Below are positions 4,020 through 63,170 of a stretch of 64,000 bases of DNA, one piece after another (position 1 is the first letter of the stretch; each line of letters opens with the position of its first letter). A program made the position numbers and the translations under genes. Source of the DNA: Candidatus Rokuibacteriota bacterium (GTDB lineage: Bacteria > Methylomirabilota > Methylomirabilia > Rokubacteriales > CSP1-6); NCBI GenBank assembly GCA_016184365.1, contig JACPCW010000088.1, positions 12,068 to 76,067 of the forward strand, in the 5' to 3' direction. Under the pieces are notes generated by a model. It saw only the letters and a list, made by a program, of their open reading frames with translations. It was not told the origin of the DNA and did not search any database.

Positions 4020-4985
4020 ATGCGCGTCTACATCGCGAAGCGCGTCCTCCTGTTCGTGCCGACGCTTGCCATCGCGTCGGCGCTGGTCTTCCTGGTGATG
4101 CGCGTCCTGCCGGGCGACGTCGCGCTCGCGATCCTCGTGTCGCGCGAGACGCCGGGCGTGGTCGCGAACGAGGACGACATCACACGACTCCGCGCCCAGC
4201 TCGGTCTGGCGGACCCGCTTCCCGTCCAGTACCTCACCTGGGTGCGGAGCCTCGCGACGGGCAACGCGGGCCTGTCGCTCTACACGCGGCGTCCCGTTGC
4301 CGAGCTCATCGGCGAGCGCCTCCCGGTGACGCTCCACCTCGCGGTCTACACCGTGCTGATCAGCCTCTTCGTCTCGATCCCGCTGGGCGCGCTCGCCGCG
4401 GTGCGGCAGGACCGCTGGCCGGATTACGTGGTGCGCGCGGGCACGATCCTCGGGCTCGCCACGCCGGGATTCTGGATCGGGCTGATCGTGCTGCTCCTGC
4501 TCGTGCTGCTGTTCCGGTGGGTGCCGAGCCCGGTCTACTACCACGTCTGGGAGGACGCGCGCGAGAACGTCTCTCTCCTCGTGTTCCCGGCCGTGATCCT
4601 CGCGTGGCGCTTCAGCTCCTACCAGGCGCGCATGGTCCGCGCCAACCTGCTCGAGGTCCTGCGGCAGGATTACATCCGGACCGCCTACAGCAAGGGGCTG
4701 GCGGAACCCATCGTGGTGCTGCGCCATGCGCTTCGCAACGCGATGCTTCCCGTGCTGACCCTGATCGGCGGCGAGCTCACGGCGCTCATGTCCGGCACCG
4801 TGATCCTCGAGAACGTGTTCAACGTCCCGGGTCTCGGCGACGCGCTCATCAACGCCATGCGCCAGCGCGATTACCCCGTCGTCGAGAACCTGCTGATGTT
4901 CTACATGACCTTCACGCTGACCATCAATCTCGTCATCGACCTGGTGTACGCGGTGATCAATCCGCGCATCCGGTACGCTGAGTAG
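4020..4985 (+). CDS. ABC transporter permease (DppB/OppB-like)
   Basis: 321 aa, multi-TM, with the conserved loop DYIRTAYSKGL. Confidence 0.85.
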   Translation: MRVYIAKRVLLFVPTLAIASALVFLVMRVLPGDVALAILVSRETPGVVANEDDITRLRAQLGLADPLPVQYLTWVRSLATGNAGLSLYTRRPVAELIGERLPVTLHLAVYTVLISLFVSIPLGALAAVRQDRWPDYVVRAGTILGLATPGFWIGLIVLLLLVLLFRWVPSPVYYHVWEDARENVSLLVFPAVILAWRFSSYQARMVRANLLEVLRQDYIRTAYSKGLAEPIVVLRHALRNAMLPVLTLIGGELTALMSGTVILENVFNVPGLGDALINAMRQRDYPVVENLLMFYMTFTLTINLVIDLVYAVINPRIRYAE

Positions 4986-4993
4986 CGCGCGCG

Positions 4994-5992
4994 ATGGGCC
5001 TGCCGCGAAGCGCGACGGAGCGAGCGGAGGTCCGCGCCGGCGCGTCATCGGCGACCATCGCCCCGCCCGCACTGCCGCGGGCCGCCGTCCGCGGCGACGG
5101 GTATCCCGCGGCGCGCGCCGGCGGTGCCCCGATCGCCGCCAGGGCGCGCGGGTGGGCGCGATCCGTGCTGCGTTTCGCGCATCGCAAGCCTCTCGGCGCG
5201 GCGAGCGGCGCGGTGCTCACGCTGTGCGTCCTGGCCGCGCTCCTGGCGCCGGTGGTGAGCCCTCATGACCCCGTCGCCCAGGACGTCCCGAACCAGTTCC
5301 GGTCTCCCGATCGCACGTACTGGATGGGGACCGATCACCTCGGCCGGGACGTCCTGAGCCGCATCATCCACGGTGCTCGTATCTCGCTGTCGGTCGGATT
5401 CCTCGCCGTCGGCGTGGCGGCGCTCATCGGCATCGTGGCCGGTACCAGCTCCGCGTATTTCGGCGGCCTGCTCGACCTCCTGCTCCAGCGCGTCATCGAC
5501 ACGATGATGGGCGTCCCGGCGCTCGTCGTCGCCATGGTCATCATGTTCGTGCTCGGTTCCTCGCTGACCAACGTCGTTCTCGCCATCACGGTCGCGTACA
5601 CGCCGCAGTTCGTGCGCATCGTGCGCTCGGAGGCGCTGGCGGTGAAGGAGACCGATTACGTGGTGGCCGCCGCGGCGTCGGGAGCGAGCTCGGCGCGTGT
5701 GCTCGGGTTCCACATCATTCCGAACACGCTGACCTCCGTCTTCGTCTTCGCCACGGGCGCCCTCGGCGGTGCGATCGTCGCCGAGGCGTCGCTGTCGTTT
5801 CTCGGGCTCGGCATCCCGCCGCCCGCGCCGTCCTGGGGCCAGATGCTGCAGGGCGCGGCCCGGCTGCACATGGAGACGTTCCCGTGGCTGGTCATCTTCC
5901 CGGGCCTGACGATCACGCTCGTCGTGTACGCGTTCAACATGCTGGGGGACGCGCTGCGTGACGTCCTCGACCCTCGCTTGCGCGAGCGATAG
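4994..5992 (+). CDS. ABC transporter permease (DppC/OppC-like); true start probably downstream of 4994
   Basis: GTDHLGRDVLSRIIHGARISL motif and multiple TM segments. The first ~60 aa are Ala/Arg-rich and unlikely to be native. Confidence 0.8.
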   Translation: MGLPRSATERAEVRAGASSATIAPPALPRAAVRGDGYPAARAGGAPIAARARGWARSVLRFAHRKPLGAASGAVLTLCVLAALLAPVVSPHDPVAQDVPNQFRSPDRTYWMGTDHLGRDVLSRIIHGARISLSVGFLAVGVAALIGIVAGTSSAYFGGLLDLLLQRVIDTMMGVPALVVAMVIMFVLGSSLTNVVLAITVAYTPQFVRIVRSEALAVKETDYVVAAAASGASSARVLGFHIIPNTLTSVFVFATGALGGAIVAEASLSFLGLGIPPPAPSWGQMLQGAARLHMETFPWLVIFPGLTITLVVYAFNMLGDALRDVLDPRLRER

Positions 5993-6003
5993 GATTCCAC
6001 CGC

Positions 6004-7362
6004 ATGGGCACCACCGAGATCCTGGCGCGTCACATCGTGGAGACCACCTACGACGCGCTACCGGCCGGGGTGGTGCGCGCCGCGAAGGACGTCATCCTCG
6101 ACGGCGTCGGCGTGATGCTGGCGGGCTCGCAGGAGGAGCCGCCCCGCATCGTCGCCGAGTACGTCCGCGAGATGGGCGGTGCGCCCCGGTGCACCGTGTT
6201 CGGCCACGGCTTCAAGACGTCGCCGCCCATGGCGGCCTTCGTCAACGGCGTCTCCGGCCACGTCCTCGACTTCGAGCCCATGTGGCACCCGGCCACGCAT
6301 GCGACCTCGCCGACGCTGCCTTCGATCCTCGCCCTGGCCGAGACGCGCGACGTCACCGGCCGGGACGCGATCACCGCGCTCGCGGTGGCGTTCGAGGTGC
6401 AGGGCCGCCTCCGGCTCGGAGGCTTCGCGACCGAGGAGATGGCGCGCATCGGCTTCCATCCGCCTGGCACCGTGGGTCCGCTCGGGGCTGCCGCCGCCGG
6501 GGCGGTGCTCCTGGGGCTCGACGTGCAGCAGACGCGCTGGGCCCTCGGTCTCGCGGCCAGCCGGAGCGGCACGCTCGCGGCGAACATCGGCAGCATGACG
6601 AAGTCGTCCCACTGCGGCAACGCCGGGCGCATGGGTCTCGAGGCGGCGCTGCTGGCGGCGAAAGGTTTCACGGCCAGCGAGGACGTCATCGAGGCGCCGG
6701 CCGGGTGGGCGCGGCTCTTCCATCCCGAGGGCTTCGACTTCACCGCCGCCGAGGCGTTCGGCCGCCCCTGGCGCATGGTGGATCCGGGCCTCGCCACCAA
6801 GAAGTACCCGTCGCAGTACGGAACGCACCGCGGCATCGACGCCGCGCTGGAGCTGCGACGGACGCACGGCCTCGATCCCGCCGGGATCGCCGGCGTGCTG
6901 ATCCGCGGACCGGTCATGCCGTACATCGACCGGCCGTTCCCGAGGACCGGCCTCGAGGGCAAGTTCAGCTACCAGTACACCGTCGCCGCGGCGCTGCTGG
7001 ACGGCGGCATCGAGATCGACACCTTCCGCGACGCTCGCCGCTTCGCTCCCGAGATGGAGGCGTTGCTCCGCAAGGTGGAGCTCCGGATGGACCCGGCGAT
7101 CCCCGGCGACCTCGAGAACATGTGGGTCGAGGTGACCGTGCGCACCGCCGCCGGCCGCACGCTGACCGCGCGCTGCGATCGGCCGCGCGGCATCTGGGGC
7201 AACCCGCTCACGCCGGACGAACGCCTCGCGAAGTTCCGTGCCACGGCCGGCGTGCTGCTCGCCGCGCCGCAGGTCGAGCGGGCGCAGGCGCTCATCGAGA
7301 GCCTCGAGACATTGCCCACGCTGCGGGATCTGATCGAAGTGCTGCACGCGAAGGAGGCATGA
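6004..7362 (+). CDS. MmgE/PrpD family protein (2-methylcitrate dehydratase-like)
   Basis: 452 aa. The N-terminal TEILARHIVETTYDALP and overall pattern are typical of the PrpD fold. Confidence 0.8.
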   Translation: MGTTEILARHIVETTYDALPAGVVRAAKDVILDGVGVMLAGSQEEPPRIVAEYVREMGGAPRCTVFGHGFKTSPPMAAFVNGVSGHVLDFEPMWHPATHATSPTLPSILALAETRDVTGRDAITALAVAFEVQGRLRLGGFATEEMARIGFHPPGTVGPLGAAAAGAVLLGLDVQQTRWALGLAASRSGTLAANIGSMTKSSHCGNAGRMGLEAALLAAKGFTASEDVIEAPAGWARLFHPEGFDFTAAEAFGRPWRMVDPGLATKKYPSQYGTHRGIDAALELRRTHGLDPAGIAGVLIRGPVMPYIDRPFPRTGLEGKFSYQYTVAAALLDGGIEIDTFRDARRFAPEMEALLRKVELRMDPAIPGDLENMWVEVTVRTAAGRTLTARCDRPRGIWGNPLTPDERLAKFRATAGVLLAAPQVERAQALIESLETLPTLRDLIEVLHAKEA

Positions 7363-23266: not shown

Positions 23267-23620
23267 CTATGCCGGCGACGCGAGCCCGGCGAGCCACGTC
23301 GTCAGCCAGTACAGCGCGGCGTACACGATAACCATCGTGCCGGCGACGAGGCCGATCAATCGCCACTGCTGGCGCGCCCCACGGAGCGAGCACGACTTCC
23401 TCGCCCTGAGGATCACGATGACGCCCGCAACGGCGACCGCCAGTCCGGCAAGCCGAAAGTACCAGCCGTACTCGTAGTAGAGCGTATTGCCCAGACCGAT
23501 CGCGAAACTCACGGTGCCCAGTCCGAGTAGCACGAGGGCGGCAGGGGTGACACAGCAGGCGATGCCGACGAGGCCCGCGATCGCACCGAGGAGAAAGCCG
23601 CCACCCTCCGCGATCCTCAT
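23267..23620 (-). CDS. small CC-motif membrane protein, MerT/MerF-like
   Basis: ATGA overlap with the upstream gene. The first TM carries GIACCVTPAALVLLGLG, comparable to the MerT ACCLGPLVLIALG. There are 3-4 TM segments. Confidence 0.55.
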   Translation of the reverse strand: MRIAEGGGFLLGAIAGLVGIACCVTPAALVLLGLGTVSFAIGLGNTLYYEYGWYFRLAGLAVAVAGVIVILRARKSCSLRGARQQWRLIGLVAGTMVIVYAALYWLTTWLAGLASPA

Positions 23621-24249
23621 GCGCGGAGATCGATCGCCGTGCGGCTCAGGGTCTCCAGCGAGCGATCTTCGAAAGGATCGGCGCCGCCATGGCTTCGACG
23701 ATACTCCTCGATCGTTCGCGCCTTCTCTTCCTGCAGCGTTTCGATCTCGGGACGAAAGGCCTCGAAGGCGAGGTTCACGAAGCGGATGAGCGGCGCGATC
23801 AGCGGCCGCGATCCACCACCCCCGGCCCTCGACATGTCTGCCTCGGCGCGTTGGTCCTCGATCCGGAAGCGTCGCACGTAATTCTTGAGGTTCGGGAGGC
23901 TCTCCTCGGCGTCGCCCACCGCCCACAGGTTCACGGTGAACAGCGCCGTGGGCCAGCCGTCCGGCGCCATCGATATCGCGACCAGGTGGGCCACGCGATC
24001 GGGGAACAGCCGGACGGTGTGGAAATGCCCTGCCTCGTGGTCGGCATTCTCATGGCGATGGTAGTAGAACTGCGAACGCGTGCTCCGGTCGAAGACGCCG
24101 TACTCGCCCGGATAGATCACCCACGGCTCGGGAACCTCGTGGCCGCACAGGCGCTCGACGACGCTGGTGCCTTCCTGCTCGAAGGTCTCGAGCAGTTGCC
24201 GGAGCTCGATAGCAGCCTGCGCAGGAGAGCGTGTCGCCCTGTCGGTCAT
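23617..24249 (-). CDS. hypothetical protein with His-rich YYHRHENADHEAGHFH motif
   Basis: Coherent ~210-aa sequence from MTDRATRS. The start is uncertain because the ORF stays open up to 24462. Confidence 0.6.
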   Translation of the reverse strand: MTDRATRSPAQAAIELRQLLETFEQEGTSVVERLCGHEVPEPWVIYPGEYGVFDRSTRSQFYYHRHENADHEAGHFHTVRLFPDRVAHLVAISMAPDGWPTALFTVNLWAVGDAEESLPNLKNYVRRFRIEDQRAEADMSRAGGGGSRPLIAPLIRFVNLAFEAFRPEIETLQEEKARTIEEYRRSHGGADPFEDRSLETLSRTAIDLRA

Positions 24250-24549
24250 CGCCGGAGGCGCCGAGGGCCAGACCGCTCGGTCACTGGCCGGTCTTGCAGG
24301 CGAGGAGAGCGTCGACGAGAGCCCGGCCGTCGCGCTGGGTCCACGAGCGCGGCCCGATCGCTCCTCTTCAGCGCATCGCCGAGCGACGTCTTCTTTCGCG
24401 AGGTACCGCTCACGCATCGTGCGCGCGCGCGGTGGGGGAAACGGCGGCGTCGAAACCGACATGCCGCCAGCGCTCGGCGTGGCGGCGCGCGGTGAGGGCG
24501 AGAGGTCTGCGCCTCGCCGGTGCCACCACAGGCTCGCCGGCCGAAGTCA

Positions 24550-25260
24550 CTACTTCTTCTTCGGCCCGGCGGCGCACGGGTTCTTCGCCGCGCACGGATT
24601 CTTGGCCGCGCAGGGGTTCTTGGCGGCGCACGGGTTGACGGGCGCCGCGCCCATCGCCACCGGCTTGACCTTCATCGTGGTGCCGGTGCCGAAGACGTAG
24701 TCGTTGGCCTTGGCCTGCTGATGGCAGGCGGCGCAGAAGTTCGTTGCCTGTCCTGCCTTGCCGCTGCCACTCATCTGGACCGCGCCCTCGGGATCGACGA
24801 TCGCGTAGTGCCAGTCACCGTTGGCGCCGTCGTAGCCCTTCCTGCGCTTCTCCATCACGAAGACGTTGCCCTTCGCCCCCGGCTTGCCGCCCTGCCCCTC
24901 GAAGGACTCCTTGACCAGGACGGCACCGGCCGGGAACGGGAACTTGCCCTGCGTACCTGCGGGCTCGGCTGTCTTGTTCAGGTAGGTGAACACATAGGTG
25001 TTGCCGTGGGTCGCGCTGAGCACCGGCTCGCTGTTGACCTTCTTCCAGTTCTTGTACTGCTTGGCCGCCGCCTGCGCGGCGGGATCCTTCGCGGCAGCGC
25101 TGCCCTTTGCCGCGCACGGGTTCTTCGCAGCACACGGGTTCGCCGCACAGGGGTTCTTGGCGGCGCAGGGGTTGGCCTTGGCCTGAGCGAGCACGTCGGT
25201 CGCGCCACCGGCGACGAGTACGCCAACCACGGCCAGGGCGGTGAACGTCTGTCGGATCAT
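24550..25260 (-). CDS. secreted cytochrome P460-like haem protein flanked by NPCAAK Cys repeats
   Basis: AGGAGGAG Shine-Dalgarno and a signal peptide ending DVLAQA. The central domain contains GDWHY and the haem motif CAACH. It has 4 N-terminal and 4 C-terminal NPCAA(K) units. Confidence 0.8.
   Translation of the reverse strand: MIRQTFTALAVVGVLVAGGATDVLAQAKANPCAAKNPCAANPCAAKNPCAAKGSAAAKDPAAQAAAKQYKNWKKVNSEPVLSATHGNTYVFTYLNKTAEPAGTQGKFPFPAGAVLVKESFEGQGGKPGAKGNVFVMEKRRKGYDGANGDWHYAIVDPEGAVQMSGSGKAGQATNFCAACHQQAKANDYVFGTGTTMKVKPVAMGAAPVNPCAAKNPCAAKNPCAAKNPCAAGPKKK
24568..24636 (-). repeat. coding tandem repeat, about 18-nt unit (NPCAAK x4, C-terminal)
   Basis: GCGCACGGGTTCTTCGCC-like units are visible on the plus strand. 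Confidence 0.9.
25105..25173 (-). repeat. coding tandem repeat (NPCAAK x4, N-terminal of mature protein)
   Basis: Same unit as 24568-24636 and 62988-63146. Confidence 0.9.
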
Positions 25261-25319: not shown

Positions 25320-25348
25320 TAAGACGGGGCGAACCTGCCACGAGGTTC
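25320..25348 (-). promoter_or_regulatory. ECF-type promoter candidate GAACC-N17-CGTCTTA
   Basis: Read on the minus strand; the -10 ends about 60 nt upstream of ATG 25260. Confidence 0.65.
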
Positions 25349-27101: not shown

Positions 27102-28013
27102 ATGTCCGCCGTCCAGATGGCGCGCTGGTCCCGGCGAACGACAGTCGACCTCCCGGCAGCGCTACACCGGTCCTTCGGCGCGCTGGACCACCGGTTGAGA
27201 CAGGCGGTCGCGCGCTTCCTCAACCGCCGCGTCACCACGGACGAGCTCAAGGTCCCGAACGACATGACGCAGCTCTACCGGCGCATCCGTAGAGGGGATG
27301 TCGTGCTGGTGGAGGGGGAGCTTCGCGTCAGCCAGCTCGTCAAGTACGTCACGCAGAGCCAGTGGAGCCACAGTGCCCTCTATGTCGGCGACGAGCTCCT
27401 TCGCCGCGGGGGGCCGTTGCGCGAGCAGGCCCTGGCCAATTTCGGCGAGCGGGCTGATCGGCTCCTCGTCGAGGCGCTGACCGACGAGGGCGTGATCGCC
27501 GCCCCTCTCGCGAAGTACCGCGCACACAACCTCCGCCTCTGCCGACCCTCGGGCCTCCATCCGGCCGATCTCGAGCGGGTCATCGACTCCGTCGTGGTGG
27601 ATCTCGGCAAGCAGTACGACGCCCGGAACTTTTTCGAGCTGGCCCTGCTGCTGCTGGCGCCGGCGCGGCTCGGCCCGCTGAAACGATGGACGGCGCGGAC
27701 ATGCCTTGGCAATTGCACCGAGCTTCAGGTGATCTGCTCCGGCATGATTGCCAAGGCCTTCCAGCGGGTGGGCTATCCCATCCTGCCTGAGCGCCGACAC
27801 TACTCGCAGATCCTGCCGCGCGACTTCGACTTGAGCCCGAACTTCCAGGTCATCAAGGCCAGCGCCATCGACGACGGCGGAGTCGATGCCCTCGACGCCC
27901 AACTCGAAGGACAGATGGAGACCGTCGCACAGCGACAGGAGGAGCGAGGGGAGCGCCGAACAGCATGCTGGCCCTTCTCGTGTGGAAGGGGGATGCGTGC
28001 GGCCGGGTGCTGA
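27102..28013 (+). CDS. hypothetical protein, possibly permuted papain-like (YiiX/NlpC-P60-type) hydrolase
   Basis: 303 aa; GDVVLVEG..WSHSALYVG..CSGMIAKAF pattern. The functional call is weak. Confidence 0.5.
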   Translation: MSAVQMARWSRRTTVDLPAALHRSFGALDHRLRQAVARFLNRRVTTDELKVPNDMTQLYRRIRRGDVVLVEGELRVSQLVKYVTQSQWSHSALYVGDELLRRGGPLREQALANFGERADRLLVEALTDEGVIAAPLAKYRAHNLRLCRPSGLHPADLERVIDSVVVDLGKQYDARNFFELALLLLAPARLGPLKRWTARTCLGNCTELQVICSGMIAKAFQRVGYPILPERRHYSQILPRDFDLSPNFQVIKASAIDDGGVDALDAQLEGQMETVAQRQEERGERRTACWPFSCGRGMRAAGC

Positions 28014-28081: not shown

Positions 28082-29110
28082 TCACCAACACCCGTCCAGG
28101 ACACCCGAGGGCGGCACCTCGCGATCGGCGTCCCGCGAACTGACTTCGCCGCATTCCACCACGCGGGGAACGGCGCGCGCCTCCAGTCGAATGCGATCGA
28201 GAGTGCGAGGTGCGAACTCGCGCAGCGACTCGCCGAAGGCGCGCTGGAAGTGTCCGAACCGGTCATCCGAGCCGTCGAACGCACGGAAGTACGTGATCAG
28301 GCCGGCGAGCCCGTGTCGCCGCACCAGCTCGTCGGTGAGGAGGAATGCGAGGCCGTAGGTCGCTGCGGTTCCGACTTCGGAGAGGCGCGCTCTCCATCCG
28401 CGCGGGTGACCCAGGACGACGAGGTCGAGGGGTTCGTGGCCGTCGGTATCCACCGCCGCCACCGCGCGGAGCGCGCGGCCTCGCCGCTCGTCCACGTCGG
28501 CCTCGCCCAGCCGGTCGAGGATCCGCGCCGAGACCCAGTCCGCCATCCCCTCGCGCAGCCACTGCTCGGAACGCCCACGCCGCCCGCCGGCGAGCTCGTA
28601 CTGGGCCACGTGCGTCAGCTCGTGCGCGACCAGGCCGAGCCAGGCGCGTCGCGGGGCCCCCCGCAGTGCCTCATCGTTCACGAACAGCCGGCGCTGCTGG
28701 GCGAGACCGAGCGAAGCGATGGTGATCCGCGCGGCGCCCGTCGGCGAGAGGCCTCCCTGGCGGACGAGGCCCTCTTCGTATTCCGCGCGAGTCGGATAGA
28801 CGAAGACCACGAGGCGCCCGGGCAACGGTAGCCGCAGCTCCGCGACCATGAGGCGCGCGATGGCTCGGATCGCCGACTCGTAGCCGCGCACGGCACGCGG
28901 AGCACGTGCCGTCGCCGCGTCGGGGCCGATCTGAACCGGGAGGATCTGCGTGGCGCGGGCACATCCCGCGAAGGCCAATGCGAGCGCGGCCGCGGCGACG
29001 AGACCGGGACGATGACGTCGTCTTCGCCCGGTCACCGCGTCGCCGATTCGGGGCCCGCGACCGAGCGGCGGCGGAGCGGGACCGTCGATGCCGCTCCGCC
29101 GCGCCCCCAT
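28082..29110 (-). CDS. lipoprotein-like zinc metallopeptidase (HExxH, peptidase MA-like)
   Basis: LAFAGC lipobox-like signal, HELTH plus a downstream EGMADW. TGATG 1-nt overlap with the porin stop. Confidence 0.65.
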   Translation of the reverse strand: MGARRSGIDGPAPPPLGRGPRIGDAVTGRRRRHRPGLVAAAALALAFAGCARATQILPVQIGPDAATARAPRAVRGYESAIRAIARLMVAELRLPLPGRLVVFVYPTRAEYEEGLVRQGGLSPTGAARITIASLGLAQQRRLFVNDEALRGAPRRAWLGLVAHELTHVAQYELAGGRRGRSEQWLREGMADWVSARILDRLGEADVDERRGRALRAVAAVDTDGHEPLDLVVLGHPRGWRARLSEVGTAATYGLAFLLTDELVRRHGLAGLITYFRAFDGSDDRFGHFQRAFGESLREFAPRTLDRIRLEARAVPRVVECGEVSSRDADREVPPSGVLDGCW

Positions 29111-30771
29111 CAGAAGCTGAACCAGGCGATCGCCTCGATCTTGTTGTTCTCGTTCTCCCGGCTCCTGGAGCCGCCGGCCGGGAACACCTGGCGGAAGTCC
29201 GTCTTGGTGTGGTTGTAGGCCACGCCGAACGTGAATGGCCCCGGGGTCCACCAGAGGCTCACTTCCGACTGCCGGTTGTTCACCCGGAAGAAGGTGTCGG
29301 CGGCAGGGCCACCGTCGGTGATCAGGCTCCCGAAGACGACTGGACGGTCGTTGTCGAGTGCGTGCTGGGCACCGCCGGCCCACCGGATGCTGACGGTGTC
29401 CGTGATCCAGAAGATCGGGTTGATGAATGCCCCGACGCTCTCCGCCTCGGTCAGCGACCCGTCGCTGTCCCGGATGATCTGCCGGTCGAACTCGGCGTTG
29501 AGGTGGCGCGCCTCGCCGCGGGTCCAGAGGCCGCCGCCCCTGAGCTGAAGCGTCATGGCGCGTCCGGTCTGATTGAAGCCGATCCGGTCCAGCGTGAACG
29601 TGCCCCATGCTGTCTGATTCGTGAAGTGCCGCTCCGAGAAGTTCGTCTCCGCGGCGTTGCTGACGGTGCCGGCCGCGGTGAATCGCTCCTCGAACTCGCC
29701 CCACGTGGTTCGGAGGTAGACCTTGACGCTGCCGATCGGGCCGATGCGGCCGGTCTCGAGACCGATGCCGCCGCTCACCGCGGGAAAGCCGCTGAGGTCA
29801 CCGCCGCCGAGGTCCCCACCGATCGCCGTGTTGTCGAAGAACGGACGCTCGAAACCGAGCGAGCTGACGAGCTTGACGCCGGGCCCGACGGGGTACTTGT
29901 GGACGATCTCGGAGCGTGGATTCCGGCGGAGCGCGGCACCGAGGCCGCCCAGCATGGTGTTGAAATCGATCGTGTCAGGGCTGTTGTCGGCGAAGCTGGT
30001 CGTCTGCCCGAGGGTGAGGATCAGCTCGTCGCCTTTCGTCATCAGATCGTCGAAGCTCCAGCGGCCGAAGCCGTGGCGCAGTCGCGGGTTGTTGTTGACG
30101 GCGCCGCCCTCGCCGGCGGTGAATTGCCGGTTGAAGTCCATCTCGAAGAAGCCCTGCGTCTTGCCGCCGAGGGTCGGCGGTCCCTGGATGGCGAGATTGA
30201 GGCGCGTGCGCCCGGCGAAGGCGCGGAAGCTCTCACGGTCGGCGTTGTTGCCGCCGCCCGGCGTTGCGGCGGGCAGCAGGGCGCGCGTCACGGATTCTCC
30301 GACCGGCGTGTCATTCGCCTGCACGTGCAGTCGGAGCGAGCCACCCAGCCGGACCTTGAACTTGTCGCTGGCGAAGACGTTGCCCGGGATGTCCTTCCCG
30401 AGCGGGCTCCGCTCGCTCTCGGCGCCCTGCTTGCGCCCGCCCTGGAGGTCGAAGAAGTTCTCCCACCCGTCGAGGAACGAGGCGACCCGCTCTTCCTGCT
30501 TCTGAAGAGAGAGCTGCTGGCTCTCGACCTGCTTCTTGATGCTCTCCAGCGTGCGCTGCTGTTCTTCCTGGCTGCGCTGCTGCTGGGTACGCTCGGCTTC
30601 GCGCTGCTCGAGCGTTCGCTTGAGCGAGTCGATCTGCTCGCGCGTCGATCGCTCCAGCTCCTGGATTCGCTGCTTCAGCTCCTCGGCGCTCTGTGCTCGC
30701 GCCGCCGGCGCGTCGAGCATGAAGACGAATGTGCCTGCCACAACGAGGACCAGCCACCGCTTGAGCCGCAT
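29110..30771 (-). CDS. outer-membrane beta-barrel porin with N-terminal coiled coil (DcaP-like architecture)
   Basis: Signal peptide ..DAPAARAQS, a ~90-aa heptad-rich Q/E/R segment, then alternating beta-strand pattern ending in the terminal AWFSF. Confidence 0.75.
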   Translation of the reverse strand: MRLKRWLVLVVAGTFVFMLDAPAARAQSAEELKQRIQELERSTREQIDSLKRTLEQREAERTQQQRSQEEQQRTLESIKKQVESQQLSLQKQEERVASFLDGWENFFDLQGGRKQGAESERSPLGKDIPGNVFASDKFKVRLGGSLRLHVQANDTPVGESVTRALLPAATPGGGNNADRESFRAFAGRTRLNLAIQGPPTLGGKTQGFFEMDFNRQFTAGEGGAVNNNPRLRHGFGRWSFDDLMTKGDELILTLGQTTSFADNSPDTIDFNTMLGGLGAALRRNPRSEIVHKYPVGPGVKLVSSLGFERPFFDNTAIGGDLGGGDLSGFPAVSGGIGLETGRIGPIGSVKVYLRTTWGEFEERFTAAGTVSNAAETNFSERHFTNQTAWGTFTLDRIGFNQTGRAMTLQLRGGGLWTRGEARHLNAEFDRQIIRDSDGSLTEAESVGAFINPIFWITDTVSIRWAGGAQHALDNDRPVVFGSLITDGGPAADTFFRVNNRQSEVSLWWTPGPFTFGVAYNHTKTDFRQVFPAGGSRSRENENNKIEAIAWFSF

Positions 30772-30836
30772 GTTGTCTCCCCCCTCGGTCGGTGTGTGCT
30801 TCATCTGCGCGGGCTCCGGCGCGCGGCCACGATCGA

Positions 30837-30879
30837 CAAACAAAAAACCCGCCCGGAGCGCGAACGCTCTCGTGGCGGC
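30837..30879 (-). terminator. rho-independent terminator
   Basis: On the minus strand there is a GC-rich stem with a UUCG tetraloop (..GAGCG-UUCG-CGCUC..) followed by GGGUUUUUUGUUUG. It lies just after the DUF2292-like gene. Confidence 0.8.
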
Positions 30880-31295: not shown

Positions 31296-31919
31296 TCATC
31301 GGGCTGGCGGAAGGAGTGGGGCCAGCTCCTTGCGGACGAACAATCGCGCCCGGTGGAGGCGCGACTTCACGGCCGGCACGCTGAGCCCGAGCGCCCTCGC
31401 GACCTCCTCGTTCGGCAGCCCCTCCACATCTCGCAGCACCAGCACGGCGCGGTACTCGTCGGGGAGGGCCGCGATCGCGCGTTCGAGCCCTGCCCGCATC
31501 TCCGCCGCGACGGCTGGATTTTCCAGATCGCGCGACCAGTCGACGACCGGTCCGATGTGGCGCCCCTCGGCGTCGAAGGCCGGCAGGACCGCGTCGAGCG
31601 CGATCTCCTGCCTGGCGCTGCGCCGGGCGCGCACGCGCTCGTACGCGGCGTTCGCGGCGATGCGGTAGAGCCAGCTCGAGAAGGCGGCCTCGCCCTTGAA
31701 GGTGCCGATCTTGCGGGCCACCGTCAGGAGGACGTCCTGCGCGATCTCCTCGGCATCTCGCGGGTCACCGACGACCCGGACTGCGACGCGGTAGATCCAC
31801 CCGCCGTAGCGATCGACGAGCTCCTCGACGGCCTTCGCCTCGCCGCGGCGCAGACTCTCGACGAGTCCACGGTCCTCGCTCCGGATGGCCGCACGCCGTC
31901 GCTCCGCCGACTCATCCAT
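31296..31919 (-). CDS. RNA polymerase ECF sigma-70 family factor
   Basis: Region 2 DAEEIAQDVLLTVARKIGTF..FSSWLYRIAANAAYE; region 4 LPDEYRAVLVLRDVEGLPNEEVARALGLSVPAVKSRLHRAR. Confidence 0.9.
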   Translation of the reverse strand: MDESAERRRAAIRSEDRGLVESLRRGEAKAVEELVDRYGGWIYRVAVRVVGDPRDAEEIAQDVLLTVARKIGTFKGEAAFSSWLYRIAANAAYERVRARRSARQEIALDAVLPAFDAEGRHIGPVVDWSRDLENPAVAAEMRAGLERAIAALPDEYRAVLVLRDVEGLPNEEVARALGLSVPAVKSRLHRARLFVRKELAPLLPPAR

Positions 31920-32021
31920 CGTCGCGGCTCTCCTCGGCCCACACCTCGGATACCCCTGAATTCCGCGCGCCGCCGGGAAGTCCATTCGTCCGCCTCATTT
32001 CCGTGGACTCGCATTCCTGGG

Positions 32022-32348
32022 TCATGGCTCGTACCCACCCCGCAGCAGGTCCTGGAGGAACGCCGAGCAGTTGACGACGATCAGGCGCGGCGTCCCAACC
32101 CGCCGGAACAGGGCGACGCCGCGGCCGTCGATGAACGTCACGCCCCCGAGGTCGAGGCGGATGGTCCGTGCTTCCTGGAGAGCCTTGCAGCACTCGCGCT
32201 CCAGCACGTCGACCCACTCGGAGACGACGCGGCCCTCCACCTGCAGCGTGACGGCGTCCGCTCCCGGTTCCGTCGTCTTCGTGATCCGCAGCACAGCGTC
32301 CCTCTCTCGTCTGGAATGTCGCGTGATCGCGCATGGGGATGACGGCAT
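32022..32348 (-). CDS. STAS domain protein (anti-sigma-factor antagonist-like)
   Basis: TLQVEGRVVSEWVDVLE...IRLDLGGVTFIDGRGVALF pattern. Start uncertain (32348 or 32390). Confidence 0.65.
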   Translation of the reverse strand: MPSSPCAITRHSRRERDAVLRITKTTEPGADAVTLQVEGRVVSEWVDVLERECCKALQEARTIRLDLGGVTFIDGRGVALFRRVGTPRLIVVNCSAFLQDLLRGGYEP

Positions 32349-32545
32349 GCGCTGTGCCAGACCCGGGCAATACGGTGCGGTGCCCTGCATGTGCGCGCGG
32401 TGGCTAGCAGTTCCTACGAGTCGAGGCAGGGAAGGCGAGCGCAGGGCCGCACAGGGCGTCCCGATATCTTGGGAGCTTCACGACATGTTGGGACGGCGCC
32501 GTGAGGAGGACCTGGGGCCCGAGGCCGGCACCGGCTCCCAGCTAG

Positions 32546-51056: not shown

Positions 51057-52799
51057 ATGCGCCTGAGCGATGACTTCCACAAGCTCCTGGACGCTGCGCC
51101 CGACGCCATGGTGCTGGTCGACGGCACCGGGCGCGTCGTCCTCGTCAACGCCCAGACCGAGCGGCTCTTCGGCTACACGCGAGACGAGCTGCTTGGCCAG
51201 CCCGTCGAGATGCTAGTGCCTGAGCGCTTGCGCGAGGTCCATCTCGCCCATCGCGCGGCGTACTTCACCCATCCGGGCGTCCGGCCGATGGGGGCGGGGC
51301 TCGAGCTCTACGGCCAGCGGAAGGACCGGCGCGAGTTCCCCGTGGAGATCAGCCTGAGCTCGCTCGATCTCGGCGGCGCCACCGTCGCGGTCGCCGCCAT
51401 CCGCGATGTCACCGAGCGGAAGAAGGCCGACGCGAAGTTTCGCGGGCTGCTCGAGGCGGCGCCCGACGCGATGGTGGTCGTCGACCGAGAAGGCCGGATC
51501 GTCCTCGTCAACGCCCAGACCGAGCGCATGTTCGGCTACGAACGGCACCAGTTGCTCGGACAGGGGATCGAGGTCCTCGTGCCGGAGCGCTTCCGCACGG
51601 CGCACGTCGGTCATCGGGGCGGCTTTTTCACCGCGCCCAGCGTCCGGCCGATGGGGGTGGGGCTCGAGCTCCATGGTCGGCGGCAGGACGGCAGCGAGTT
51701 CCCCGTGGAGATCAGTCTCAGCCTGCTCGAGACGGAGGAGGATCTCCTGGTCATCAGCGCCGTCCGCGACATCACCGAGCGGAAGAAGGCGGAGGAGCTC
51801 GAGCGCGTCAAGGCCCGGCTGGAGGAGGAGAACACCTACCTCCAGGAGGAGATCAAGACCCAGCACAACTTCGAGGAGATCGTCGGGCAGAGCTCGGCGG
51901 TTCGACGGGCACTGAGGGCCCTCGAGACGGTCGCACCCACGGACGCCTGCGTCCTGGTCCTCGGCGAGACCGGCACGGGCAAGGAGCTGGTGGCGCGCGC
52001 GCTCCACGATCTGAGCGCGCGGCGGCGCACGCCGCTCGTCAAGGTGAACTGCGCCGCCATCCCTGCCGGACTCATCGAGAGCGAGCTGTTCGGCCACGAG
52101 CGGGGAGCGTTCACCGGCGCCATCTCCCGCGCGATCGGGCGGTTCGAGCTGGCCGACGGCGGGACGATTCTCCTGGACGAGATCGGGGAGCTGCCCCTGG
52201 ACTTGCAAGCGAAGCTGCTCCGGGTCCTCCAGGACGGGGAGTTCGAGCGAGTGGGAAGTGCCAGGACGAACAAGGTCGACGTGAGAGTCGTCGCGGCCAC
52301 GAACCGGGACCTCGAGGCCGCCGTGCGGGAAGGGCGATTCCGCCAGGATCTCTATTACCGCCTGAACGTCTTCCCGATCCGGGTCCCTCCACTTCGCGAG
52401 CGGAAAGAGGACGTGTCGCTCCTCGCCAAGTATTTCGTCGCGCGGTACGCGGCGAAGTTCGGGAAGAGGATCGACGCGATCCCGCGAACGGCGATGGACG
52501 CGCTGCGCGCCTATCCCTGGCCCGGCAACGTGCGAGAGCTCGAGAACGTGATCGAGCGCGCGGTGATCCTGAGCCAGGGGCCCGAGCTCAAGCTCGGCGA
52601 GTGGCCACCCCGCGGAGTCGTCCCCCGCGAGGCGCGACTCCTGACGCTCGACGAGGTGGAACGGGACCACATCACGGCCGTGCTGGACCTCACGGGGTGG
52701 CGCGTGAGCGGGGCGCAAGGGGCGGCGACGCTCCTCGGACTCAAGCCGACGACCCTGGAGGCGAGGATGAAGAAGCTCGGGATCCAGCGCAAGCCGTGA
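51057..52799 (+). CDS. sigma-54-dependent transcriptional activator with two PAS domains
   Basis: Two near-identical PAS repeats (APDAMVxVD..[15 protein letters not shown]). AAA+ domain with [14 protein letters not shown] and ESELFGHE. C-terminal Fis-type HTH. Confidence 0.9.
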
Positions 52800-62903: not shown

Positions 62904-63170
62904 ATGATCCCCAAGCTCGTCACGGCGGCATCGGTTGCTGCTCTGCTGACGCTGGCCGCGGGCACGGACGCGATGGCGCAGAAAGCCAACCCGTGTGCCG
63001 CGAAGAACCCGTGTGCAGCCAATCCTTGCGCGGCGAAGAACCCGTGTGCGGCCAAGAACCCGTGCGCGGCGAAGAACCCGTGCGCGGCGAAGAACCCGTG
63101 CGCGGCCAAGAACCCGTGTGCGGCGAAGAACCCGTGCGCGGCGAAGAACCCGGCCAAGAAGAAGTGGTAG
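62904..63170 (+). CDS. secreted NPCAAK-repeat protein (9 Cys units)
   Basis: GGAGGTG Shine-Dalgarno 6 nt before the ATG and a signal peptide ending TDAMAQ. The mature part is almost entirely (NPCAAK)n, ending NPAKKKW. Confidence 0.75.
   Translation: MIPKLVTAASVAALLTLAAGTDAMAQKANPCAAKNPCAANPCAAKNPCAAKNPCAAKNPCAAKNPCAAKNPCAAKNPCAAKNPAKKKW
62988..63146 (+). repeat. coding tandem repeat, 18-nt unit AACCCGTGYGCGGCSAAG x9
   Basis: Directly visible in the sequence. One unit lacks a codon (NPCAA). Confidence 0.95.

Follow-up and report, generated by a model that had tools for sequence, protein, structure and literature searches.

Why should a small secreted haem protein carry cysteine repeats on both sides of its haem domain, and do such repeats form a functional module or a chance linker? 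This question is raised by a gene at 24550–25260 of a 64,000-nt stretch of Candidatus Rokuibacteriota DNA (contig JACPCW010000088.1, positions 12,068 to 76,067; hereafter the window). The open reading frame (ORF) runs on the minus strand, a point missing from the preliminary description of this DNA and supplied here. Its translation, 236 residues long, matches the protein layout given in that description: four NPCAA(K) units, a haem domain, four further units and a GPKKK end. The product is very probably a Sec-exported, periplasmic mono-haem c protein with the P460/cytochrome c'-beta fold, of the P460 type and flanked by two NPCAAK arrays. This is a new architecture within a known haem family, and it is accompanied by a conserved gene set.

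The haem core

The central domain had earlier been placed in the cytochrome P460 family from sequence motifs, and both a profile search and structure prediction confirmed this placement. Pfam model PF16694 matched the 124-residue core (aa 67–190), which contains YKNW, GAVLVKE, GDWHY, CAACH and DYVF, with 67.1 bits (cut-off 27; E = 2.4e-18) over profile positions 2–124 of 125. The AlphaFold2 model, built with 61 homologues, reached a predicted local distance difference test score (pLDDT) of 85–97 across the core. Foldseek comparison of this model with the PDB placed P460 or c'-beta structures in all 13 of its best positions, led by 6hiu (E = 7.5e-6, template modelling score to the target 0.63) and 9hrk. 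Matches with E <0.01 were exclusively P460/c'-beta structures, and the next match after the 13 had an E-value of 0.86. The single CXXCH motif lies near the C-terminus (C176-A-A-C179-H180), and C176, C179 and H180 are nearly invariant among the 61 homologues. By eye, the N-terminus is signal-peptide-like, with a basic n-region, a hydrophobic core and an AQA cleavage-type site (...VLAQA-K), and an Ala-rich linker joins the N-terminal array to the core.

Within this fold, the protein is assigned to the P460 type and not to c'-beta because the haem cross-link lysine is retained. Single-sequence and profile alignments pair Lys117 (GAVLVKE) with Lys78 of Methylococcus capsulatus P460 (McP460, 6hiu) and Lys70 of Nitrosomonas europaea P460 (NeP460, TVTVKE), and this lysine is kept in at least 90% of homologues. 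A 2025 review lists Ne Lys70, Mc Lys78 and Ns Lys106 as cross-link lysines, with Phe or Met at that position in c'-beta proteins (PMC11928373, Table 2). The c'-beta protein 7ead has Phe there (VIVFD), and the c'-beta hallmark of Phe or Met in place of the lysine is absent from the repeat protein. Lys117 is accordingly the predicted haem cross-link position. The c'-beta proteins (McCP-beta 6HIH, NeCP-beta 7S5O, Thermus 7EAD) share the fold and the haem c site with it, bind nitric oxide and occur in non-nitrifiers.

The characterised P460s of M. capsulatus (6HIU/9HRK) and N. europaea (2JE2/2JE3) share with the repeat protein the Pfam family, the predicted fold, the C-terminal CXXCH, the position of the cross-link lysine and secretion, although McP460 is only about 30% identical to it in the Foldseek alignment. 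They also differ from it. They lack Cys-repeat tails, and the P460 review (PMC11928373) mentions neither repeats nor extensions. The genomic context of the repeat protein is not that of nitrification. Finally, a distal carboxylate (Ne Glu96, Mc Asp102) is required for hydroxylamine oxidation and is absent from the inactive NsP460 (PMC11928373), whereas in single-sequence and profile alignments Mc Asp102 is paired with Phe134 of the repeat protein, which is invariant. Glu137, also invariant, follows three positions later and could substitute only if the alignment register differs.

The NPCAAK repeats and their distribution

A degenerate DNA pattern for N-P-C-A-A occurred 17 times in the window (4 + 4 in the P460 gene and 9 in a second, stand-alone repeat gene), against 0.07 in shuffled sequence, and Tandem Repeats Finder also reported the 18-bp arrays. 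Independent metagenome contigs contain them as well: in four groundwater metagenome runs, Logan contigs extend over the locus and its two arrays, running through the N-terminal array whole and entering the C-terminal array from both sides. Because these contigs break inside the C-terminal array, its number of units rests on the assembly. Repeat-coding DNA words were 100–260 times as abundant as flanking DNA in the source metagenomes, indicating that NPCAAK-coding words are common to very many genes or organisms in the community. Contig word depth over the arrays (24546–24668 and 25120–25201) rose to about 260 times that of the flanks, at about 20,000 versus 77 in X1.

A protein search returned 604 relatives of the P460 repeat protein. 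The closest several dozen (57–86% identity), from metagenome-assembled genomes (MAGs) of Rokubacteria, Binatia and Betaproteobacteria in NCBI, JGI, ENA and Logan assemblies, are built as the same kind of sandwich, with 0–9 N-terminal and 0–6 C-terminal units, so that tails recur in dozens of homologues. Units in homologues sometimes read QPCAPK or NPCAPK, and nearly all close homologues end with two or three basic residues. The eight extra thiols had been singled out as unusual; they are so compared with characterised P460s, but they are the rule within this subfamily. Tailless full-length relatives with a signal peptide also exist (P0055 and P0057; about 62% identity), and the tails are therefore accessory to the fold. 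A distant P460 subfamily (P0067–P0120) has N-terminal arrays only, of up to 33 units. Its members share a conserved C-terminal ...PEEYR(x)K tail, which may be compared with the YRK terminus that attaches Braun's lipoprotein to peptidoglycan.

All eight units of the P460 gene are spelled with different synonymous codons, and their variation is synonymous only. The P460 protein and the stand-alone repeat protein of the window likewise share an identical 25-residue stretch (KANPCAAKNPCAANPCAAKNPCAAK) whose codons differ at 13 third positions and show 0 replacement differences. Because the differences are synonymous only, they point to purifying selection on the peptide and argue against slippage and recent copying. 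Conservation in homologues, occurrence both alone and on other domains, and synonymous-only variation together support the earlier proposal of a periplasmic module: the repeat behaves as a selected element and not as a chance linker.

Both arrays have pLDDT values below 50 in the AlphaFold2 model, which suggests that they are probably disordered. Units vary irregularly in length (5, 6 or 3+6 residues), and array copy number ranges from 1 to about 40 units. Flexible Pro-Cys thiol strings fit the low pLDDT, the irregular units and the variable copy number better than a rigid structure does. A regular solenoid or disulfide ladder was considered and found unsupported, given the low pLDDT and irregular unit lengths.

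The stand-alone repeat protein, whose gene start was given as 62895/62904, has a near-identical counterpart in a second locus (L019). Its start had been called almost identical to that of the P460 protein; this holds for the 25 repeat residues, but the signal peptides are only moderately alike, with 65% identity over 60 residues overall. Rokubacteria-type stand-alone and P460-repeat proteins share an M(I/V)R(Q/K)...LAQ(A)KANPC start and a basic end, and basic endings are found in homologues and stand-alone repeat proteins generally (APKK, AGRK, AAKK). Because of this shared start and end, the P460 protein resembles a repeat peptide of the stand-alone kind (signal peptide, array, KK tail) into whose middle a haem domain has been placed. 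The proposed module shuffling is thus supported by protein architecture as an old evolutionary event; as a recent copy it was rejected at the DNA level by the 13 synonymous versus 0 replacement differences in the shared codons.

A shared promoter of the two genes, also proposed earlier, found no support: their upstream regions, aligned pairwise, have only an AGGAGG ribosome-binding site in common, and no sigma-70-like site was found upstream. An extracytoplasmic function (ECF)-promoter-like candidate, GAACC-N17-CGTC, lies at 25323–25348 on the minus strand, 63–88 nt upstream of the P460 start codon. This pattern was enriched neither in the window (11 versus 6 expected) nor upstream of repeat genes elsewhere (3/155 versus 11/1021).

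With the stand-alone repeat protein as query, 577 proteins were retrieved at E <=0.01. Proteins with the module include stand-alone secreted peptides from Nitrosomonas, Motiliproteus, Onishia, Tectimicrobiota, Binatia and others, and small SoxA/TsdA-like cytochromes c flanked by arrays on both sides (P0070 of Motiliproteus, P0077 of Zobellella). An NPCAAK tail is also found on a DUF2282 bufferin-type domain (P0225), and arrays occur on a small beta domain. A DNA scan for NPCAAK-NPCAAK-NPCAA, with one genome per species, found at least 118 loci, to which all locus counts below refer. The genomes belong to Beta-, Gamma- and Alphaproteobacteria, Rokuibacteriota, Methylomirabilia, Nitrospinota, Acidobacteriota and one cyanobacterium; cultured carriers among the loci listed include Azoarcus, Aromatoleum, Denitromonas, Hahella, Psychromonas, Pseudomonas and Stutzerimonas. 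Among the 158 repeat genes called in these loci were 57 cytochrome c fusions, 13 P460 fusions, 55 stand-alone genes and 29 with other domains. The last group includes lipoprotein-array-thioredoxin fusions of the cyanobacterium, Nostocales LEGE 11386 (L110). In two tandem lipoprotein-type genes of that locus (4693–5300 and 5751–6340), the lipobox and a WCPGC thioredoxin domain are separated by NPCA(A/S)K units, and a DsbD-like gene adjoins the pair.

The repeat itself matched no Pfam or NCBIfam model at E <=1 and no PDB entry better than E 1.7, and neither window repeat protein matched NCBIfam. A search of 8.3 million full texts did not find NPCAAK motif strings in relevant literature. A role in anti-phage defence was considered and dropped, as the repeat had no PADLOC match. 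Taken together, these results describe NPCAAK as a widespread and apparently undescribed bacterial module.

Gene neighbourhood of the repeat genes

ORFs were called in all loci and clustered by BLASTP, and the cluster representatives were annotated. DUF6969, the partner most often kept by repeat-bearing haem proteins, occurred in 41 of the 118 loci, no more than two genes from the repeat gene in 39, and accompanied P460 and cytochrome c versions alike. Other recurrent families were DUF302 and the YeeE/YedE-like Sulf_transp (22 loci each), ECF sigma factors (21), DUF3179 (19), a c554-like multihaem cytochrome (18), a secreted 161-residue protein of an unnamed family, u161 (17), and Redoxin, DsbD or WCGTC thioredoxin (14). 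Peptidase_C92 was present in nine loci, CMD/AhpD-like genes in eight and FGE-sulfatase-like genes in seven. The ECF sigma genes are paired with DUF3379 or HxxxCxxC anti-sigmas. The usual gene order is stand-alone repeat, repeat-haem protein, (multihaem cytochrome), DUF6969, u161, DUF302, Sulf_transp and DUF3179, with the sigma/anti-sigma pair upstream of or divergent from this operon.

Individual loci add further contexts. Look-ups of single P460 homologues showed an ECF sigma factor, a zf-HC2 anti-sigma and DUF6969 divergent from them, and one homologue is followed by a type II NADH dehydrogenase (NDH-2) gene and then an HMBD P-type ATPase gene. In Zobellella, the cytochrome c version sits between copR-like and DUF6969 genes inside a cluster of CusS, cupredoxin, CopB and multicopper oxidase genes, with thioredoxin and DsbD just downstream. 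The Motiliproteus order is redoxin, repeat, repeat-cytochrome and multihaem cytochrome, with a CzcBA-type pump nearby.

In four loci (L031 of Azoarcus sp. Aa7, L014, L035 and L086), a Tn21-type MerR gene is no more than a few kb away from a repeat gene, a weak link to mercury; in L031, a bona fide MerA ending in SCCAG is also near the repeat gene. The four MerR loci exceed what an 8-kb window would catch by chance. A cluster of flavin adenine dinucleotide (FAD) disulfide reductases that resembled MerA was rejected as a sign of a mercury system: the C-terminal Cys pair was present in 1 of its 14 members only, and the remaining members are other or DedA-fused reductases. A second module was observed beside repeat genes in L079, L105, L048 and L069 (Pseudomonas sp. 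XK-1, Stutzerimonas chloritidismutans AW-1 and others). It consists of an ECF sigma factor, a 75-residue HxxxCxxC anti-sigma, DUF2064 and a 240-residue ORF (possibly a glycosyltransferase), together with an ArsS-like radical S-adenosylmethionine gene, Peptidase_C92 and a DedA-fused FAD disulfide reductase.

The window fits this conserved pattern, with several of the recurrent families around the P460 gene (Table 1).

Table 1. Features of the P460 repeat gene and related genes in the window
Feature	Position	Strand	Basis or remark
Whole gene, secreted cytochrome P460-family protein with NPCAAK arrays on both sides	24550..25260	-	ORF, translation, Pfam, homologues
Signal peptide, aa 1-27 (MIRQTFTALAVVGVLVAGGATDVLAQA)	25180..25260	-	Read from sequence
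N-terminal array, aa 30-52: NPCAAK-NPCAA-NPCAAK-NPCAAK	25105..25173	-	Translation, repeat scans, pLDDT <50
Cytochrome P460 domain, aa 67-190	24691..25062	-	Pfam match, pLDDT 85-97, Foldseek 6hiu and 9hrk top
Lys117 codon, aligned with haem cross-link lysine	24910..24912	-	Alignments, homologue conservation, PMC11928373 Table 2
CAACH haem c attachment motif, aa 176-180	24721..24735	-	Sequence; conservation
C-terminal array, aa 209-231: NPCAAK x3 + NPCAA	24568..24636	-	Translation, repeat scans, pLDDT <50
Basic tail GPKKK and stop codon	24550..24567	-	Sequence; homologues
Stand-alone repeat protein: signal peptide, nine NPCAA(K) units, NPAKKKW	62904..63170	+	Translation, pattern scan
DUF6969 gene, 210 aa (P0241), next downstream of P460 gene, same strand	23617..24249	-	Pfam PF22308
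NDH-2, divergent from P460 gene	25432..26892	+	Also directly downstream of L004 homologue
Peptidase_C92 (YaeF/YiiX-like)	27102..28013	+	Family recurs in repeat loci
ECF sigma gene, 6 kb from P460 gene	31296..31985	-	tblastn 64.5% identity to Rokubacteria L096 ECF sigma
CMD/AhpD-like gene	~21975		Window
Redoxin gene	53213		Window

The DUF6969 gene leaves no room for a signal peptide. A 300-bp gap (24250–24549) separates its start from the P460 stop, and no terminator-like site was found there on the minus strand. The AlphaFold2 model of the DUF6969 protein is confident (pLDDT 84, predicted template modelling score 0.85), yet it had no Foldseek match in the PDB at E <0.001, and no profile match was found in the PDB. 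An invariant histidine cluster was noted in the family (H64, H66, E72, H77, H88). DUF6969 may be a new fold and may form a metal or haem site. It is not mentioned in the literature searched, and on replicons of Azospirillum and Sinorhizobium its genes stand among unrelated neighbours.

Several window genes have their closest relatives in Rokuibacteriota MAGs, and G+C is 69%; both suggest a Rokuibacteriota genome, probably from groundwater. The ECF sigma gene is preceded by a 122-residue ORF resembling a STAS/anti-sigma-antagonist domain (31296–32390 for the two together, minus strand), and a 577-residue ORF downstream of it (29110–30843) has no Pfam match. Further away, a 363-bp tandem duplication (51096–51790; 1.9 copies, 76% matches) lies within a 609-residue ORF resembling PAS sensor kinases.

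Possible functions of the arrays

Our preferred reading, which we put forward tentatively, is that the tails form a disordered, stress-induced periplasmic array of thiols in which thiophilic species are captured next to a redox haem; all of its chemistry we infer. The P460 gene would then belong to a stress-responsive envelope gene set, as the nearby ECF sigma/anti-sigma pairs suggest. The lysine-flanked Pro-Cys thiols of its product, set at even intervals, would make up a flexible array of high capacity and be kept reduced by a supply line of DsbD/CcdA and thioredoxin or redoxin; the adjoining genes for these proteins suggest that the array thiols are meant to be reduced. Soft metal ions (for example Cu(I) or Hg(II)) or related species of metalloids or sulfur may be captured by such an array in the periplasm and held by a haem able to take or give electrons or to bind small N-oxides, and the stand-alone repeat peptides of the same operons would add capacity. 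Soft metals are favoured among the possible ligands because of the cop, HMBD-ATPase and czc contexts, the MerR and MerA genes, and the fusion to a bufferin-type domain, bufferins being copper-chelating periplasmic peptides (PMC11626156).

Several points weigh against this reading. Canonical metal-resistance genes are missing from the majority of the 118 loci, only a few genomes supply the cop, mer and czc links, and of the 11 MerA-like neighbours a single one has the C-terminal Cys pair of MerA. The repeat offers one Cys per 5–6 residues and no CxxC, His or Met, a make-up unlike known periplasmic copper sites, and DsbA tends to oxidise periplasmic thiols. The DsbD and thioredoxin neighbours could just serve the maturation of adjacent c-type cytochromes, and the commonest neighbours, Sulf_transp, DUF302 and SoxA-like cytochrome c, are at least as suggestive of sulfur or selenium chemistry. 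The P460 repeat gene was not found in any RNA run, and the neighbourhood counts derive from our own crude ORF calls in 8-kb windows, with no formal background model.

Known systems offer partial parallels. SilE and PcoE are secreted, stress-induced, low-complexity metal sponges that use His and Met, not Cys, and metallothioneins are cytoplasmic proteins with CxC/CxxC clusters. The NPCAAK arrays resemble both as low-complexity, probably disordered, high-capacity ligand arrays, but searches of Pfam, NCBIfam and the PDB revealed no sequence relationship. Bufferins (BufA1/DUF2282) are, like the repeat peptides, secreted Cys-containing peptides, and they are implicated in metal stress (PMC11626156); the DUF2282 protein P0225 has an NPCAAK tail. 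Bufferin cysteines, however, are converted to thiooxazoles by an MNIO enzyme, and MNIO (DUF692) and DUF2063 are not among the families present in at least four of the 118 loci, single loci not having been checked exhaustively. MrpX of Azospira suillum is also a small secreted low-complexity peptide dominated by one sulfur amino acid; its gene adjoins an ECF sigma/anti-sigma pair, and a reducing system works alongside it (PMC4436054). It differs in being Met-rich and not Cys-rich, with no regular repeat and no haem fusion, and its partner YedY/MsrP is absent here.

The parallel with MrpX leads to a different explanation, which we consider unlikely: the arrays would be a cysteine version of this methionine-rich peptide, a sacrificial or recyclable thiol sink for reactive chlorine, oxygen and nitrogen species that is oxidised instead of essential envelope proteins and re-reduced through DsbD-thioredoxin or redoxin, while the haem domain removes the oxidant. 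P460 binds nitric oxide and hydroxylamine, and the cytochrome c type resembles peroxidase domains. The regulatory genes agree with such a role, the sigma/anti-sigma pairs beside repeat genes including some with a 75-residue HxxxCxxC (ZAS-type) anti-sigma, as do the redoxin, thioredoxin, DsbD and CMD/AhpD-like neighbours. Chlorate, iodate and nitrate respirers are found among the carriers, as are nitrifiers (Stutzerimonas chloritidismutans, Denitromonas iodatirespirans, Nitrosomonas, Nitrospinota), and a precedent exists in Azospira, where SigF/NrsF-controlled MrpX scavenges hypochlorite together with a reductase (PMC4436054). Nevertheless, N-P-C-A-A-K is conserved across phyla more strictly than a merely oxidisable residue needs, and no equivalent of a thiol peroxidase or methionine sulfoxide reductase is consistently present. 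Quite unlikely, in our estimate, is that the arrays are sulfane-sulfur or selenium carrier arms whose cysteines bear a persulfide, polysulfide or selenotrisulfide, in the manner of the SoxY arm, between cytochromes and a YeeE/YedE-type transporter. The commonest operon, running from the repeat-haem protein through DUF6969, u161, DUF302 and Sulf_transp to DUF3179, is what speaks for it: the Sulf_transp representative has YedE/FdhT and TsuA as its best NCBIfam matches (below cut-off), DUF302 genes are known inside sox clusters (PMC5037610), DUF3179 includes UxxC selenoprotein members (PMC9312934), and the haem domain most often present gives a match to the SoxA-TsdA cytochrome c family. Yet Sulf_transp, DUF302 and DUF3179 are all absent near the P460 gene in the window, and the P460 domain has no known sulfur role. 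Sulf_transp lies no more than two genes from the repeat gene in only 3 of its 22 loci, and ECF control suggests stress over energy metabolism.

That the arrays lack chemistry of their own, and merely position redox domains as passive spacers or tethers through structural disulfides or by anchoring C-terminal lysines to the wall or membrane surface, is improbable. The Nostocales array does sit between a lipoprotein anchor and a thioredoxin domain, and the low pLDDT, variable copy number, invariably basic C-termini and existence of full-length homologues that do without tails would all suit a tether. Against this, 55 of the 158 repeat genes encode a signal peptide and an array with nothing to tether, and the Pro-Cys pair is invariant and under selection at the amino-acid level, whereas linkers tolerate substitution. 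A direct role in haem handling appears highly improbable: the thiolates would bind free haem, supply a sixth ligand, as in haem-regulatory motifs and His/Cys-ligated SoxA/TsdA, or aid cytochrome c maturation. Most fusions join the module to a c-type haem domain (57 to cytochrome c, 13 to P460), the PCAA unit echoes the FCAACH haem site, and the best PDB match of the repeat is the N-terminal hexapeptide His-Pro repeat of the FLVCR2 haem transporter. That match, however, is at chance level (E 1.7, not significant); the units read Pro-Cys and never the Cys-Pro of the haem-regulatory motif; the haem is five-coordinate in known P460 structures; and the module is found by itself and on thioredoxin, bufferin-type and beta domains as well.

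Extended to the whole family, the thiol-array reading becomes a broader proposal that we regard as possible but doubtful. NPCAAK arrays would constitute a new, widespread class of disordered periplasmic thiol-array module which, with an ECF sigma/anti-sigma pair and DUF6969, a His-rich protein of the cytoplasm, makes up an envelope system not described before. Interchangeable haem domains (P460 or SoxA-like cytochrome c) would act in it on thiol-captured copper, mercury, selenium or reactive nitrogen or chlorine species, and the P460 fold would have been recruited outside hydroxylamine oxidation.

Research on cytochromes P460 has dealt with them almost exclusively as enzymes of nitrifiers and methanotrophs that oxidise hydroxylamine and produce nitrous or nitric oxide. 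The present protein, of the P460 type and with many homologues, is set in another architecture and another gene context. DUF6969, DUF302 and DUF3179 gain a testable partner, and several culturable carriers make the function directly testable. If the arrays are indeed thiol sponges coupled to haem, they would represent a new way of handling soft metals, metalloids and reactive species in the bacterial envelope, with relevance to metal and nitrogen cycling in aquifers.

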